In this document: piece by piece, positions 35,706 to 41,929 of the stretch
Numbering within the stretch: position 1 is the stretch's first letter
Layout of the letters: every line of letters begins with the position of its first letter
Assembly (NCBI GenBank): GCA_002010065.2
Contig: MTMD02000011.1
Span: 1 to 64,000, forward strand
Reading direction: 5' to 3'
Source: Candidatus Pyrohabitans jungbluthii
Lineage (GTDB): Archaea; Hydrothermarchaeota; Hydrothermarchaeia; Hydrothermarchaeales; BMS3B
Length of the DNA: 64,000 nucleotides
Program-made: the position numbers and the translations under genes
The notes under the pieces: generated by a model
The model's database searches: none
Seen by the model: the letters and a program-made list of their open reading frames with translations, nothing else
Told to the model about the DNA's origin: nothing

Positions 35706-35908
35706 TAAAATTCCTCCATCAGAGTGATTCAGATAAAAATCTCTTAAGGTCTTTACTGCCCTACCGTTAAAAAAGTTTTTGGAGAGGCTTGGTATGTTTG
35801 AGTGGTAGCCAAAGTTAAAAAACTCTCAAATGATACAAAATATATAAATAAGTGTTAAGTAAAACCCTATATATACATGCATATTATTGGATAATGGGGG
35901 TGAGGGAA

Positions 35909-36463
35909 ATGGAAGATTCCACTGAAAATGCGGCTGTTCAAGCCTGCGAGGTGAGGAAGAAAACTCAGTGGCGTGTTTTTTGGGCGCTTGTGATTCTTGT
36001 AGTGGGTCTTGTCCTATTTATGCCGGTGAAGCTTATAACAACTGAGCGGGGCTACCCTGCTTTGTGGTTCATTGCCTACACAGCATTTGCGATTTCAGCC
36101 TTCATAGTTCTTGGCGGGCTTATAATGAAAAAGCGCTGCCTGCCTGCGGTTCCACCTCCTTTTATTAAGAGCGTGAGTGAGGTGGAACAACCTTTACCTG
36201 GCGATGTCGAAGTGGAGCTTTCACCTGAGGATAGGGAACTCCTTTACAGCATAAAGGAGCTTATTAACTGGTTTGAAGAGGAAAAAATCAGGAAAGCAAG
36301 GTACCACGATTACCGTGCTCGCGTTGCCGAACTTGAGCGCTGGTTGAGGATGGGTATAAAGAAGGACATCGAGATAAGAAATCTCAGAAAGGAACTAAAG
36401 CAGCTTAAGGAGGAGCTTGAGAGGGTGAGGGCAGCCCACAATGAAGGTAGAGAAACTTCTTGA
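35909..36463 (+). CDS. Two-TM membrane protein with C-terminal ELERW coiled coil (paralog of 41300-41860)
   Basis: Two hydrophobic helices followed by PEDRELL...ELERW...KDIEIRNL; the stop overlaps the globin gene start. Confidence 0.75.
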   Translation: MEDSTENAAVQACEVRKKTQWRVFWALVILVVGLVLFMPVKLITTERGYPALWFIAYTAFAISAFIVLGGLIMKKRCLPAVPPPFIKSVSEVEQPLPGDVEVELSPEDRELLYSIKELINWFEEEKIRKARYHDYRARVAELERWLRMGIKKDIEIRNLRKELKQLKEELERVRAAHNEGRETS

Positions 36464-37472
36464 AAAAGACTGGGAGACTCTTAAAAGCTACCTTGAAATC
36501 ACTAGAGAGGATGAAAAGAGGCTGGAGAAAATAGGTGAGGTGCTGCTCAGGCAACATAAGGAGATACTCGATCTTTTTTATGAGCACCTCTTGAGCTTCG
36601 ACGAGACATCGCGTTTTTTCCCCAGGGAGGTGAGCGTAGAGAAGGTTAAACTCAAGCAGATGGAATACTTCAAGAGACTGACTCAGGGCAACTACGACTT
36701 GGAATACCTTAGGGATAGAACCAGAGTTGGCATAGCCCACGACCGCATCACCTTGCCTGCGCGTTGGTACCTTGGCGCCTACAGGAAGTACCTGGAGCTG
36801 CTGATGCCCCAGATATGTAAAGCTCTGTTTCCGGGCAGTGAAAAGGTGCTCCATTATATTGAGAGCCTGCTGAAGGTGATCTTCCTCGACATGGTTGTTG
36901 CGATAGAGACCTACATCGCTCTGCGCGAAGGCAAGCTGCAGGAAAGCAGGGAGCACTTCAAGAGGATATTCGAAGGCGCAAACGATGCTATATTCCTCAT
37001 CCGCACCGATTATGTAATAGAGGATGCAAATCCCGCCGCACTAAAATTGCTGAAGCTTGACAGAAGCGACGTGGTGGGAAAGAAATGTTATGAGATTATC
37101 CACGGGAGTAAGAGCATGTGCACTCAGGTGCCATGCACAATTAAAGAGGTGCTGGAGAAGGGTGAGGTGCATGGAGTTATACACAAACATTACGACTGCG
37201 ATGGCAATGCAATAACCGTCGAGATATCCGCCTCAGGGATAAGGGACAGCGAGGGCAACATAGTAAAAGTGGTTGAGTCTGCAAGGGATATAACTCCGAG
37301 GGAGATGGTGAGGAAGGAACTTGAAAAGCACATCGCCGAGCTTGAGCGCTGGCAAAAGATGACCGTGGAAAGGGAATTGAGGATGGTTGAGCTTAAGGAG
37401 GAGAACCGCAGGTTAAGAGAGGAGCTGAACAGGCTGAAGAAGCTGTGTGCCAATATAGAAGGGGATGAGTAG
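36441..37472 (+). CDS. Globin-coupled sensor: protoglobin domain + PAS + coiled coil, no output domain
   Basis: FYEHL..F, LKQMEYF, RVGIAHDRI.L...WYLGAY (sensor globin), PAS (NPAA, GKKCYEIIH), RELRMVELKEE tail. Confidence 0.85.
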   Translation: MKVEKLLEKDWETLKSYLEITREDEKRLEKIGEVLLRQHKEILDLFYEHLLSFDETSRFFPREVSVEKVKLKQMEYFKRLTQGNYDLEYLRDRTRVGIAHDRITLPARWYLGAYRKYLELLMPQICKALFPGSEKVLHYIESLLKVIFLDMVVAIETYIALREGKLQESREHFKRIFEGANDAIFLIRTDYVIEDANPAALKLLKLDRSDVVGKKCYEIIHGSKSMCTQVPCTIKEVLEKGEVHGVIHKHYDCDGNAITVEISASGIRDSEGNIVKVVESARDITPREMVRKELEKHIAELERWQKMTVERELRMVELKEENRRLREELNRLKKLCANIEGDE

Positions 37473-39495
37473 CACGCCGACCCAGAGAAGAAGTACCGAA
37501 AAGGAGATTCTTAAAAGGATGTACGCCACCCTGAGCGGGATAAACCATGCGATTATCCATGCGAAGACGCGAGAAGAACTCTTCGAGGAGGCGTGCAGAG
37601 TAGCGGTTGAAAAGGGCAGGTTCAGGATGGCATGGATTGGCGTGGTAGAGGGAAGCGTGGTCAAGCCGGTTGCAGTGCGTGGACATGTGGCTGGTTACCT
37701 TGACAAAGTAAAAATTTCTTTAGAAGCTGTGTCTTCAGGGAGAGAACCTACGGGAAGGGCGATAAAGGAAGGCAGGATAGTTATAAACCCGGACACCAGA
37801 ACCAACCCCGAGGTGGGGCCATGGAGGGAGGAGATGCTCAAGCGGGGCTATCTCTCCTCTGCGGCTATCCCTCTCAGGGAGGGGGACAGGGTAATAGGCG
37901 CTTTCAACCTCTATGCCTCTGAGCCTGGTTTTTTCGATGAGGAAGAGGTTGCCCTGGTTGAGCAGCTCGCCCAGGACATATCCTTTGGTCTGGACCATAT
38001 TAAAAAGCTGGAGGAGCTCAGGGAAAGCGAATTAAGGTACAGAATGCTGGTGGAAACCTCACCCTTCGCTGTGGTACTCTTCTCTGAAGGCAGGATTGTA
38101 TATGCCAATCCGGCGGCAGTGAAGCTTGCGGAGGCATCGAGTTTGGAGGAGCTTCTGGACAAGCATGTGCTTGAGTTTGTACTCCCCAAATATCATTCCC
38201 TTGTTCAGGAGAGAATCAAGCGGGTGGGAAGGGGTGAGATTGCCCCTCCTGCGGAGATGGAGCTACTAACGCTGAGGGGCAATGTTGTTGTGGCTGAGGT
38301 GATGGGTTCGCCTGTAATCTACCAGGGAAAGCCTGCGATTCAGTTAGTTATCCGCGACATCACCGAACACAAAAAGGCGGAGGAGAGGATTAAGGAGCTA
38401 TCCCAGTTTCCTGAGAAGAACCCAAATCCAATTTTCAGGGTGAGAAAAGACGGCGAAATTCTGTACCACAACCCAGGGGTGTTTAACTATGTCAGCGACG
38501 CCAAGGATGTCAGGAACCTCCTGCCCCCCAACTACGAAGAGCTGGTGAGAAGGGCATGTGACTCAGGAGAGGAAATCAGAGCAGAGCACAGGTTCGGAGA
38601 CAGGTACATCGATTACATCATTTTACCTGTTTCTAAAACAGTGGCTCATATTTATGGGAGGGATATAACCGAGAAGAAGCGAGCCGAAGAGGAGCTAAAG
38701 AGGTATGCGGAGGAGCTTGAGAAGAGCCAGAAGGCTCTTCTGAACATACTCGAAGATGAGCGTGAGGCAAGGGAGAAATTGGAGAAGGCTTATGGGGAAC
38801 TCAAGACGCTGGATACGCTGAAGGATGACATCATCGCCAACGTGAGCCACGAACTTCGCACTCCGATGACCATAGCCAAGGGTTTTGCGGAACTCGCCCT
38901 AGATGAGCAGAATGAAGAGGAACGCAAAAAAGAGCTTATGAAGATACTCGAGGCACTTGAAAAGCAGAACGCAATAATAGGCGACCTCATTGCCATGGCA
39001 GAAGCATCCAAAGAAAAGCTTAAGCTTCGCAGTTCCCACTTCTCCATTAAAGATTTAATTTCGCATGCCATTGTGGAGAAAAAGAAGGACATATCCAAGA
39101 AGGGCATTAAACTGGAGCTTCAGGTGGAAGATTTTGATGTTAAGGGAGATTTCGACAAACTCAAGCATGCGCTTATAAATCTCATAGACAACGCCATAAA
39201 GTTTAACCGTCCGCAGGGTAAAATATTAATAAAAGCCCGAAAGGGGAAGAACAGTGCAATTATCTCGGTGAGCGACACGGGTATAGGGATACCTGAGAAC
39301 CTCTTACCAAAGATCTTTGAGCCTCTCTTCCAGGGTGATGCCTCCATAAAGCGCAAGTATGGAGGCACGGGAATGGGGCTTGCAGTGGTAAGAACCATAG
39401 TCGAGGCACATGGCGGTGAAGTTTATGCGGAGAGCACCCCTGGTGAGGGTTCAACATTTACACTGGTGCTCCCTTTGGGGGCTGGAGGTGGATGA
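37465..39495 (+). CDS. GAF-PAS-PAS sensor histidine kinase
   Basis: GAF (SSAAIPL, GAFNLY), PAS domains, H-box SHELRTP, NLIDNAIKF, DTGIGI, GGTGMGL, GSTF. Confidence 0.93.
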   Translation: MSSTPTQRRSTEKEILKRMYATLSGINHAIIHAKTREELFEEACRVAVEKGRFRMAWIGVVEGSVVKPVAVRGHVAGYLDKVKISLEAVSSGREPTGRAIKEGRIVINPDTRTNPEVGPWREEMLKRGYLSSAAIPLREGDRVIGAFNLYASEPGFFDEEEVALVEQLAQDISFGLDHIKKLEELRESELRYRMLVETSPFAVVLFSEGRIVYANPAAVKLAEASSLEELLDKHVLEFVLPKYHSLVQERIKRVGRGEIAPPAEMELLTLRGNVVVAEVMGSPVIYQGKPAIQLVIRDITEHKKAEERIKELSQFPEKNPNPIFRVRKDGEILYHNPGVFNYVSDAKDVRNLLPPNYEELVRRACDSGEEIRAEHRFGDRYIDYIILPVSKTVAHIYGRDITEKKRAEEELKRYAEELEKSQKALLNILEDEREAREKLEKAYGELKTLDTLKDDIIANVSHELRTPMTIAKGFAELALDEQNEEERKKELMKILEALEKQNAIIGDLIAMAEASKEKLKLRSSHFSIKDLISHAIVEKKKDISKKGIKLELQVEDFDVKGDFDKLKHALINLIDNAIKFNRPQGKILIKARKGKNSAIISVSDTGIGIPENLLPKIFEPLFQGDASIKRKYGGTGMGLAVVRTIVEAHGGEVYAESTPGEGSTFTLVLPLGAGGG

Positions 39496-39866
39496 AAATG
39501 CCAAAGGTTCTGGTGGTGGATGACGAGCGTGACATGCTGAGGCTCGTAAAGAATATACTTAGTGGAGAGTTTGAGGTAATTGAGGCTGAGAGTGGAGAGA
39601 AAGCCCTGAAGCTTGTAGAAAAGGAGATGCCTGACATAATCCTTCTCGACATAATGATGCCGGGCATGGACGGGTGGGATTTTCTGGAGAAGTTCCGCAG
39701 GCTCGAAGGCGCGGAGCGTGTGCCTGTGATAATGTTCACTATACGCAGTGAAGCCAGCGAGGTGCTCTCAGGCATGGCTGTGGAGGGTGTGGTGGACTAC
39801 ATAACAAAGCCCTTTGACCCTGAAGACCTTAAGATGCGCATTAGGCGGGCGATAAAAAATGAGTGA
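39492..39866 (+). CDS. Single-domain response regulator (receiver)
   Basis: VLVVDD, LLDIMMPGMDG, VIMFT, YITKPF. Confidence 0.93.
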   Translation: MKMPKVLVVDDERDMLRLVKNILSGEFEVIEAESGEKALKLVEKEMPDIILLDIMMPGMDGWDFLEKFRRLEGAERVPVIMFTIRSEASEVLSGMAVEGVVDYITKPFDPEDLKMRIRRAIKNE

Positions 39867-41322
39867 TATTGAGTCGCGGGTAGTTACTGTGGGAAACAGA
39901 TATTTCTACAAGATTGAATTTCCCACCCTCACGCCTAAAGAGATGAAGTTTCTGAAGAAGGTGAAAGAGGCAGCGATAAAGGAGGCGAGGGTTGATCTGC
40001 AAGGTTTAACGAAGGAGCAGATGAAGCAGCGCATGCTATTCGCAGTGCTTGAGATAATGGACAGGCTTAATGGCGACCTGGAGCTCTCGCCAGAGAAGAG
40101 GCAAAAGCTTGCGGAGCTTATTGTCAATGACATGGTGGGCTACGGCTTGCTAGAACCCATTCTCGAAGACGACGAGATTGAGGAGATAATGGTAATTGGC
40201 CCCAAGCGCCCGGTGTATGTGTTTCACAGGAAGTACGGAATGCTTGAAACGAACGTGGTTTTCCAAGATCCCAGGGAGATTGTGAACATCGTACAGCGAA
40301 TAGCTTCCAGCATTGGCAGGCGCATAGACGCATCTTCGCCTCTCCTGGATGCTCGTCTTCCAGACGGCTCCCGCGTCAACGCCACTCTAAGCCCACCCGC
40401 CCTTGATGGACCAACAGTAACCATAAGGAAGTTCAAAAAGGATCCGCTCACGATAGTTGACCTGCTGAAGTTCAACACCCTCAATAGCGAGGTCGCAGCC
40501 TTTTTGTGGCTCATGGTCGAGGGGATGGGGGTATGGCCTAAGAACATCCTTGTGGCTGGCGGCACCGGAAGCGGAAAAACCACTACTCTAAACGCCCTTG
40601 CAATTTTCATCCGCGAGCGCGAGCGCGTTATTACCATTGAAGATACCGCAGAGCTTCAGCTTCCAATAAAGCATCTCATAAGGTTTGAGGTACGCCCCCC
40701 GAGCATAGAGGGGAAGGGCGAGATAGACATGGACACCCTGCTTAAAAACACGCTGCGAATGCGCCCCGATAGAATAATCATAGGCGAGGTCCGTGGAAGT
40801 GAGGCAAAAACGCTTTTCACAGCCATGAACACTGGGCACAACGGCACCCTAGCGACGCTTCATGCAAACAGCGCGAGAGAATGCATTACGCGCTTGACAA
40901 ATGAACCCATGGGTGTTCCAATGATAATGATTCCTGCACTGGATTTGATTGTGATGCAGGCGAGGTACGCCCATGAAAAGAAAGGGTTAATAAGAAGAGT
41001 AACAGAGGTAACAGAGGTTGGTGGGATTACTGACAGTACCGTGGCTCTCAGCAAAATTTACGAGTGGGACCCGGGCAGTGATGTTATAAGGAGCACTGGC
41101 ACGCCAAGCACGCTGAAGCAGGAGCTTGCCAAGCAGGTTGGCATCTCCATAGAGGAGGTGAATGAAGAGTTTGAGAAGAGGAGGCTTGTTCTGGATTACC
41201 TGCTTGAAAACAACATTAGGGAGATTTACGAGGTGCGCAGGTGGGTGGAGAGCTATTACACCAACCCTGAGGCCACGCTGAAGAAGATTGAGGAATCCCT
41301 TAAGGCTTCGACTCGCTCATAG
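39859..41322 (+). CDS. CpaF/TadA/VirB11-family type IV pilus/secretion ATPase
   Basis: DARLPDGSRVNA, TIRKF, GGTGSGKTT, TIEDTAEL, LRMRPDRIIIGEVRG, MNTGH, TLHAN. Confidence 0.93.
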   Translation: MSDIESRVVTVGNRYFYKIEFPTLTPKEMKFLKKVKEAAIKEARVDLQGLTKEQMKQRMLFAVLEIMDRLNGDLELSPEKRQKLAELIVNDMVGYGLLEPILEDDEIEEIMVIGPKRPVYVFHRKYGMLETNVVFQDPREIVNIVQRIASSIGRRIDASSPLLDARLPDGSRVNATLSPPALDGPTVTIRKFKKDPLTIVDLLKFNTLNSEVAAFLWLMVEGMGVWPKNILVAGGTGSGKTTTLNALAIFIRERERVITIEDTAELQLPIKHLIRFEVRPPSIEGKGEIDMDTLLKNTLRMRPDRIIIGEVRGSEAKTLFTAMNTGHNGTLATLHANSARECITRLTNEPMGVPMIMIPALDLIVMQARYAHEKKGLIRRVTEVTEVGGITDSTVALSKIYEWDPGSDVIRSTGTPSTLKQELAKQVGISIEEVNEEFEKRRLVLDYLLENNIREIYEVRRWVESYYTNPEATLKKIEESLKASTRS

Positions 41323-41860
41323 ACTTCGACTCGTGCTTCTTACTAAGCTCCCTTACCTTTCTTTTCAGGTTGCGTATTGTTATGTCCTTGCTTATCCCCA
41401 GTCTGTACCACCGCTCTATCTCTTTAATCCTCTCCTGTGGATTTCTGAGTCGAATTTCCTTTATCAACGCCTCCCGATACCAGCGCTCAAGCTCCTTTAG
41501 GCTTTCCAGAAGTTCTTGGTCTTCCGGGTCGAGCCTAATCTTCTCGTATCCATTCCCTGCGGCTCTCTTTTCTAGGTCCTCTATCTGCTTTCTTACATTG
41601 TAGAGGGATTCTCCTGCGATGTGCATGTGACTTCTTACCATACCTCCGTAAAGTAGAAATGTTCCAAAAGCAATGGCGGTGTAGACAACAAACCAGGTTT
41701 TAACCTCACCCCCTGCTATTACGGCATCGAGGGGTAGAAGGAGCAAAAGTCCTATAAAGATTGCTACATTCAGCCAGAAAATTCGCCATATAATCTTTTT
41801 CTTTCTTTCCACTCTTCTTAGCTCTTTTTCAAGTATAAGTTCTGCTGCATCTTCACCCAT
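41300..41860 (-). CDS. Two-TM membrane protein with duplicated E(L/I)ERW coiled coil (paralog of 35909-36463)
   Basis: WRIFW...W..YTA.A TM pair, then PEDQELL..LKELERWY...IKEIERWY..GISKDITIRNL. Confidence 0.75.
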   Translation of the reverse strand: MGEDAAELILEKELRRVERKKKIIWRIFWLNVAIFIGLLLLLPLDAVIAGGEVKTWFVVYTAIAFGTFLLYGGMVRSHMHIAGESLYNVRKQIEDLEKRAAGNGYEKIRLDPEDQELLESLKELERWYREALIKEIRLRNPQERIKEIERWYRLGISKDITIRNLKRKVRELSKKHESKSMSESKP

Positions 41861-41929
41861 TATCCCACACCTTCTGGTCACCTATGTAGGTTATGGTATT
41901 TAAAAATTTTCGTATAGCTATTTCTTTCT

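Follow-up and report, generated by a model that had tools for sequence, protein, structure and literature searches.

The window analysed here is the 64,000-nucleotide (nt) stretch of Candidatus Pyrohabitans jungbluthii DNA given above, which is contig C11 of a genome of 1.99 Mb in 15 contigs (referred to as G000). Between positions 35909 and 41881 it carries a signalling cassette in which a sensor protein with a globin and a PAS domain probably plugs into the neighbouring histidine kinase through the helix at its C-terminal end. We refer to this end helix as the tail and to the short kinase segment on which it would dock as LNILED. The two modules form a helix-socket pair that is widespread in bacteria and archaea and seemingly undescribed. 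The docking of the globin sensor on the kinase is supported by strong comparative evidence. The four features that are central to this finding are the following:

36441..37472, plus strand: globin-PAS-tail protein of 343 amino acids (aa), with no output domain (Pfam).
37314..37451, plus strand: canonical C-terminal tail helix, residues 292-337 of 343, ELERWQKMTVERELRMVELKEENRRL (tail profile, E 1.2e-21).
37465..39495, plus strand: histidine kinase of 676 aa (Pfam; H-box SHELRTP).
38719..38790, plus strand: LNILED segment, kinase residues 419-442, EKSQKALLNILEDEREAREKLEKA, the proposed tail socket (LNILED hidden Markov model (HMM), E 1.3e-4).

Pfam identified a protoglobin domain (PF11563) at residues 8-159 of the sensor protein, with an E-value of 1.2e-34 and 120.1 bits against a curated cut-off of 25, and a PAS domain (PAS_9) at residues 171-288 (E 2.5e-17), and it found no output domain, as had been proposed in a sequence-only reading of the window. 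The globin aligns to that of the Geobacter globin-coupled sensor 2w31 (E 1.3e-11). In this alignment, His100 (GIAHDRI) corresponds to the His of GHAHVRV at the conserved AH.R position and Tyr47 (LFYEHLL) to QFYDYLL at the conserved FY position; we take these positions to be the F8 proximal His and the B10 distal Tyr. The tail of this soluble protein, a helix of about 45 residues, was detected at residues 292-337 of 343 with an E-value of 1.5e-21 when the tail HMM was scanned over the open reading frames (ORFs) of the genome. The globin-PAS gene lies directly upstream of the kinase gene and overlaps it by 8 nt. In the kinase, a GAF domain (residues 34-177) and a PAS domain (191-303) are followed by about 100 unassigned residues, the LNILED segment, HisKA (453-513; 53 bits in Pfam) and HATPase_c (561-671; 111 bits), with the H-box SHELRTP present. 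Thus, of the GAF-PAS-PAS kinase that had been read from the sequence, the GAF, one PAS and both kinase domains were recovered, and the second PAS domain was not detected by Pfam.

The single LNILED copy at residues 419-442 lies 10 residues ahead of HisKA (453), and it is the sole match of the LNILED HMM among the 12,639 ORFs of the genome (E 1.3e-4, with the next at 2.6). It is kept in the kinase orthologs of the other four genomes of the genus (G001, G002, G003 and G004). Since this kinase holds the sole LNILED match of the genome, in our interpretation the globin-PAS protein is a detachable sensor with this kinase as its docking site. A second pair can be observed in the same genome on contig C5, where a gene for four PAS domains and a tail is followed by a membrane kinase with the variant AYFNMLQD (FNMLQD), and in one related genome a GAF-PAS-tail gene precedes a kinase of 270 aa that starts with LAVLNILED. 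As to mechanism, we consider it likely that tail and LNILED helix associate, probably in a helical bundle, so that the state of the haem and of the PAS domain would reach the kinase beside the kinase's own GAF and PAS inputs. The signal would with somewhat less assurance be O2, CO, NO or redox state, sensed at the haem. In a complex prediction with two copies of kinase residues 400-520 and two copies of the tail, run on our own alignments and free of controls, the score was 0.06 against a mark of 0.32, which we count neither for nor against docking.

The analysis supports the view that the shared helix is a real, specific module beyond coiled-coil likeness. The tail of the globin-PAS protein aligns without gaps to the ends of two membrane proteins encoded in the same cassette, each with two transmembrane (TM) segments and here named 2TM-A and 2TM-B (pairwise BLASTP, E 5e-7 and 0.006), which bears out the ungapped alignment already noticed by eye. 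In a profile-profile comparison with hhalign, the 18-member 2TM family and 10 tails were related with a probability of 96.7% and an E-value of 4e-10. Additionally, the 12,639 six-frame ORFs of the genome were scanned with an HMM that had been derived from 146 tails, all from unrelated database proteins; this HMM matched the two PAS-tail proteins and all five 2TM paralogs (E 5e-6 to 7e-4) and nothing else, the best remaining ORF having an E-value of 0.015. The two cassette copies score about 31 bits with this HMM. The match to 2TM-A (E 6e-8) ends 7 residues before the C-terminus and that to 2TM-B (E 8.6e-8) 9 residues before it. Among 177,635 PDB sequences, which include many coiled coils, none matched the tail profile better than E 0.031 (17 bits). 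The concern that a profile of this helix would fit generic coiled coils equally well was therefore not borne out, either in the genome or in the PDB. The docking module that had been proposed from the sequence thus stands as a specific helix, with the kinase as its probable partner according to comparative genomics; it is not peculiar to the cassette.

A word-indexed search with the globin tail alone returned close orthologs only (10 matches from 21 candidates). An exhaustive profile search, performed with a profile from 10 tails, retrieved 9,850 clusters at 50% identity with E<=1e-3, and the hosts include bacteria of the Candidate Phyla Radiation (CPR), Nitrospirota, Acidobacteriota, Proteobacteria, Planctomycetota and several archaeal phyla; tails are also present in 17 of 41 relatives. 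The consensus is roughly ELE[RK][FW]xKLTVGRELKMIELKKEIxxLKxEL, and a near-identical sequence (LTVGRELKMIELKKEI) can be followed from Acidobacteria through CPR bacteria to archaea. The position of the helix is highly conserved. Among the 146 top matches it ends at most 35 residues from the C-terminus in 143 and at most 10 in 127, and all 100 tail ORFs in 80 public-genome loci stop 0-32 residues past the motif. The domains identified in 84 tail carriers were PAS (47), HAMP (18), receiver (8), GAF (8) and dCache (7), and neither HisKA nor HATPase_c occurs in any of the 120 tail carriers listed; their annotations read only "PAS domain S-box protein", "response regulator" or hypothetical. By its sequence distribution, then, the tail is a C-terminal module, very widespread among sensors without an output. 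Two loci show particular arrangements. In a contig of a Paceibacterota metagenome-assembled genome (L056, 1-7222), seven tail-bearing sensor genes of 294-355 aa stand in a row in one direction, and no LNILED gene was found in the sequence examined. In L161 (G395:C51), the tail ORF upstream of the kinase has about 45 unrelated residues after the tail and shares nucleotides with the kinase ORF, which may be due to a frameshift or a sequencing error.

The repeat profile of the partner segment, LNILED, spans 24 residues. For 97 tail genes the following gene was recorded: a same-strand kinase gene comes directly next in 44, with a 4-nt overlap in 16 of them, and in the other 53 the next gene is a second tail gene (13), another same-strand gene (26) or a receiver gene (4), or the tail gene faces a gene on the opposite strand (9) or ends its contig (1). 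Forty of the 44 downstream kinases carry one to five LNILED motifs ahead of the DHp domain, spaced exactly 21 residues, with the consensus EDTQRAVLNILEDFAEERARLEEA. Among 60 other kinase-like ORFs in the tail loci, 10 also bear the motif, four of them (L035, L042, L065 and L099) within 3 kb downstream of a tail gene. Counted by locus, an LNILED gene follows the last tail gene directly in 37 and lies within 3 kb in 10, four loci being too short to tell. The motif precedes HisKA, HisKA_2/HWE and one HD-GYP domain. Because it also precedes the latter two types, it follows the tail and not a particular type of kinase. In L040 (7551-8300), two tail genes immediately precede the gene for a protein of 249 aa with one LNMLED motif and then an HD-GYP-type HD_5 domain; hence proteins other than kinases can also carry the socket. 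Stand-alone H-NOX, FIST and V4R-like genes, the last coding for about 200 aa, can be observed interposed between tail genes and LNILED kinases (L090 6156-6704; L035 6145-6747 and 7358-8539; L052, L053, L042, L065 and L099).

The association also holds at the level of genomes and in the opposite direction. In five whole genomes of 2.8-7.4 Mb, all six places with LNILED lie directly downstream of a tail, and of the eight places with a tail two, both in G045, lack an adjacent LNILED match. The reverse search, starting from LNILED, found a tail gene directly upstream in 8 of 8 published loci; two LNILED matches in the unpublished genome G270 were left out of this count. The search of relatives with an alignment of the kinase segment was dominated by DHp and was likewise excluded from the LNILED counts. 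One bacterial order has LNILED in 2 of 151 genomes and one class in 7 of 201, and the cultured species Ramlibacter albus and Duganella violaceipulchra have exactly one tail match and one LNILED match each, adjoining.

The gene neighbourhood is conserved, since the cassette is present in all four other genomes of the genus, a check that the sequence-only reading had proposed. In G019, which belongs to another family of the same order, the gene order is dCache-HAMP-PAS-GAF-tail, Protoglobin-LNILED-HisKA-HATPase, PAS-GAF-kinase, receiver, ATPase and GAF-kinase; the globin is here on the socket side, which fits a shuffling of modules around the docking junction. This fused protoglobin-LNILED-kinase, together with the 8-nt gene overlap in the cassette, could also be taken to mean that the globin-PAS and kinase genes are the halves of a recently split or frameshifted sensor kinase and that the tail has no function of its own. 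We regard this as very improbable. The split is kept in all five genomes of the genus, in which the neighbouring 2TM-A gene is at 51-76% identity, the tail is C-terminal in thousands of clusters, and the 100 tail ORFs and 52 LNILED ORFs include none with both modules. Moreover, the junctions between tail and kinase genes vary (-4, -1, +1, +2 nt and others), so that there is no single frameshift site.

Apart from the sensor and the kinase, the cassette contains the following features:

35909..36463, plus strand: 2TM-A, 184 aa; a TM hairpin is joined by a disordered linker to two cytoplasmic helices (ORF; no known family).
36314..36442, plus strand: divergent tail helix of 2TM-A, ELERWLRMGIKKDIEIRNLRKEL... 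(tail profile, E 7.7e-9).
39492..39866, plus strand: stand-alone receiver (CheY-like), 124 aa (Pfam Response_reg, E 1e-28).
39859..41322, plus strand: secretion ATPase of the TadA/FlaI/VirB11 superfamily, 487 aa (Pfam T2SSE, E 4.5e-51).
41300..41881, minus strand: 2TM-B, 193 aa, convergent paralog of 2TM-A (ORF, pairwise comparison).
41330..41437, minus strand: divergent tail of 2TM-B, residues 149-184 (tail HMM).

The ORF map agrees in full with the six genes, the overlaps and the convergent paralog that had been described from the sequence: successive plus-strand genes overlap by 23, 8, 4 and 8 nt, and the convergent pair shares 23 nt. The start of 2TM-A is the ATG at 35909, inside a longer ORF with a GTG at 35852. 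The region 35840-35905 contains TATA-like AT-rich stretches and, just 5' of the ATG, a Shine-Dalgarno-like (GGTGA-like) sequence, GGGGGTGAGGG, because of which the ATG was favoured over the GTG.

The two membrane proteins are paralogous (34% identity, E 6e-26) and match no family in Pfam or NCBIfam. An AlphaFold2 model of 2TM-A, based on an alignment of 18 sequences, has helices at residues 3-37, 52-74, 106-128 and 135-183, with a mean predicted local distance difference test score (pLDDT) of 73; these form a TM hairpin and, after a disordered linker, two cytoplasmic helices, the last of which is the shared helix. A search of the ESM Atlas with 2TM-A gave best scores of 0.77-0.78, which is noise level. 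The possibility that helix 106-128 mimics LNILED was considered and rejected, as the LNILED HMM gives no match there. The family comprises 17 clusters, all unnamed, among 5.8 billion proteins, and among the 41 relatives full-length members are confined to this genus. It has a motif of its own, WYRLGIxKEIxIRNL, which is distinct and strongly conserved. 2TM-A sits one gene upstream of globin-PAS, in the slot that an upstream tail gene occupies in tail-tail-kinase arrays; 2TM-B is convergent and hence has no LNILED gene directly downstream. One further paralog, at a locus on contig C8, lies between cheD and arlCDE, and two others (C9-type) lie upstream of a TM-GAF kinase and a receiver, the kinase being without LNILED. 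From these neighbourhoods, the 2TM family appears tied to signalling and motility loci in general.

The output arm would consist of the receiver and the ATPase. The ATPase is a T2SSE protein (PF00437; 174 bits, E 4.5e-51 in Pfam). It scores 329 bits against the FlaI equivalog (NF058587; cut-off 550) and 256 bits against the TadA equivalog (TIGR03819; cut-off 373), and because both scores are below the cut-offs, it is a member of neither. Pfam detected no pilin or platform (T2SSF) gene beside it in the cassette. The pilus ATPase of the sequence-only reading is thus retained as a member of the T2SSE family, and its attribution to a pilus lacks a pilin or platform neighbour and falls short of the FlaI and TadA cut-offs. 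The ATPase is 56-57% identical to each half of a tandem ATPase of 1,084 aa on contig C2 (229060-232314; L032), which adjoins two T2SSF genes and a pilin with a class-III signal in a type IV pilus-like locus; most genomes of the order have such a tandem form, about 1,000-1,190 aa long. Its nearest single-domain homologs outside the genus also adjoin signalling genes: in G006 the order is receiver then ATPase, and in G036 kinase, ATPase and KaiC-like gene.

Other loci of the genome hold related genes. On contig C6 (13808-17124), two ArlI-like ATPase genes of 541 and 564 aa lie next to each other and are better ArlI candidates than the cassette ATPase; they stand beside arlH- and arlJ-like genes, being flanked by a KaiC/ArlH-like gene of 233 aa and a membrane gene of 576 aa (all names by eye). 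On contig C8 (363017-364335; L030), the gene of a MEDS-PadR regulator overlaps that of a stand-alone receiver, a close paralog of the cassette receiver; this pair, which is also conserved in G004, adjoins the genes for archaellin and arlCDE. Near the end of contig C9 (8499-9601; L031), the gene of a MinD/ParA-like ATPase overlaps that of a further close receiver paralog, an arrangement that presumably resembles a split TadZ/CpaE.

From the gene order, we infer that the receiver may control the adjacent ATPase, and a surface-filament output and a gas signal are put forward in the same conditional sense. The chances appear about even that the kinase phosphorylates the stand-alone receiver, which in turn would modulate the adjacent hexameric TadA/FlaI-type ATPase. 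On the whole, we are inclined to regard the cassette as a multi-input, split two-component system. Docking of the 2TM tails on the cassette kinase is plausible from sequence comparison; that 2TM-A and 2TM-B would act as membrane-anchored extra plugs, tethering the kinase or competing with the globin sensor for it, is a tentative proposal.

It is important to mention the observations that weigh against this interpretation. The docking itself is proposed from comparative genomics. Among 74 informative tail loci, 27 have no LNILED gene within the sequence examined, and in G045 two of three tail matches have no adjacent LNILED match. There is no correspondence between the LNILED repeat count (1-5) and the number of upstream tail genes, and a one-to-one ratio of the two was rejected, as the counts disagree. 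In G002, the globin ortholog is shortened to 304 aa and has no protoglobin domain detectable by Pfam. The three weakest 2TM tails score 17.5-24 bits, near the 17 bits reached by chance by coiled coils in the PDB; no LNILED kinase is near three of the five 2TM paralogs, so that the 2TM tail may have another partner; and 2TM-B, present in the cassette of G001 and G004, is missing from it in G002 and G003. As regards the output, the points to be counted are those given above, namely the scores of the ATPase below the FlaI and TadA cut-offs and the missing pilin and platform neighbours.

The tail loci without a nearby LNILED gene, together with the predicted helicity and heptad-like patterning of both modules, would also suit a simpler view, in which the tail is a mere homodimerising coiled coil, LNILED a mere linker helix and their adjacency ordinary operon organisation, and in which the sensors either contact the kinase through other surfaces or have no effect on it. 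Some short PAS and LOV proteins are known to dimerise through a helix at the C-terminus. We consider this view improbable, since a plain dimerisation helix is not expected to stay near-identical from Acidobacteria to archaea, to occur solely at the extreme C-terminus of output-less proteins or to pair one-to-one with LNILED genome-wide; nor would it account for the presence of LNILED ahead of different kinase types and an HD-GYP domain.

For the membrane proteins, the alternative is that they are scaffolds or anchors for motor complexes, namely the cassette ATPase and the archaellum switch proteins at the C8 locus, and not kinase plugs, the tail-like helix serving self-assembly or another partner. 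Docking between the globin protein and the kinase could still hold in that case. Such a role, which would presumably resemble that of crenarchaeal ArlX/FlaX, is suggested by the 2TM paralog that lies directly upstream of arlCDE, overlapping it, and next to cheD in G000, G001, G002 and G004, by a 2TM match just after cheD in G003, by the overlap of 2TM-B with the 3' end of the ATPase gene, by the C9-type paralogs that adjoin a kinase without LNILED, and by the family's own conserved motif. Against it, 2TM-A occupies the exact upstream-tail slot of tail-tail-kinase arrays, of which 13 were found elsewhere, the sole LNILED of the genome lies in the cassette, and hhalign supports homology of the 2TM ends with true tails. 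For these reasons we consider the scaffold explanation unlikely, but it carries distinctly more weight than plain dimerisation of the tails.

Taken in its widest form, the docking interpretation would make tail and LNILED a universal plug-and-socket that wires separate sensors non-covalently to one output enzyme, the cassette being a three-plug, one-socket case; we would neither favour nor disfavour this generalisation. The sensors would be PAS, HAMP, Cache, GAF, receiver, globin, flavodoxin-like and 2TM proteins, and the outputs HisKA kinases, HisKA_2/HWE kinases or HD-GYP proteins. With up to seven plugs and five sockets per array, input could be combinatorial or competitive, and the three-plug cassette would place a filament-type ATPase under the input of a haem sensor and two membrane anchors.

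Several known systems can be compared with this arrangement. As in AfGcHK (PDB 5ohe), GsGCS (2w31) and HemAT (1or4), a sensor globin with conserved His and Tyr stands upstream of a histidine kinase pathway, and a protoglobin directly fused to a kinase, as in globin-coupled kinases, occurs in G019. In the cassette, unlike in the globin-coupled sensor kinases, globin, PAS domain and tail make up one protein, and the kinase is another, with GAF and PAS domains of its own. Stand-alone sensors that act in trans on kinases are known, such as H-NOX with its kinase and the periplasmic LuxP with LuxQ. In the cassette, too, a separately encoded sensor would control a kinase, and H-NOX genes even lie between tails and LNILED kinases (L090); we know of no conserved portable helix-socket pair in the H-NOX or LuxP-LuxQ systems, whereas here two short modules recur on many types of sensor and output. 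The docking domains of polyketide and non-ribosomal peptide synthases, in which a short C-terminal helix and an N-terminal helical segment join the products of consecutive genes in order, offer an analogy of logic only, because the sequences are unrelated and a signal would be passed instead of a substrate.

Coiled-coil segments such as the S-helix and HAMP linkers carry signals between sensor and output, and S-helices are internal to one chain. KERT-type S-helix motifs precede the tail in carriers of the HAMP type; the tail itself, unlike the S-helix, is terminal, lacks ERT by eye and has the signature ELE[RK][FW]..LTVGRELKM.ELK. Split histidine kinases reportedly divide the DHp from the catalytic domain. 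In the cassette, by contrast, the split runs between the sensor modules and an intact DHp-CA kinase. What the cassette shares with split kinases is the distribution of kinase function over two polypeptides (PMC3591291, PMC7656254). As regards the output, bacterial single-domain response regulators are known that control the type IV pilus ATPase PilB (PMC11181946, PMC11656802). The cassette is similar in that a stand-alone receiver is encoded with an ATPase of the PilB/TadA superfamily, a pair also observed in G006 and G019; it differs in that the ATPase is archaeal, has no pilin or platform neighbour and is only putatively linked to the receiver.

To the sequence-only reading, no earlier description of the architecture was known, and the database searches are in agreement. 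No entry was found for either module in Pfam, NCBIfam or the PDB; in particular, LNILED is covered by no Pfam family and present in no PDB chain. No publication with the tail or LNILED motifs, or with a matching description, was found in a literature search whose coverage left out subscription literature and supplements.

In the usual picture of two-component signalling, each signal has its own sensor kinase, with both functions on one chain. If the interpretation proposed here is true, a portable docking pair would explain the role of thousands of output-less proteins whose present annotation is hypothetical or "PAS domain S-box". It would also reveal how the inputs of a single kinase can be added, exchanged or stacked by the cell, and would provide a natural connector for synthetic biology. 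For this archaeon, the reading of the cassette points to a link between oxygen or redox status and a motor of the pilus or archaellum type.

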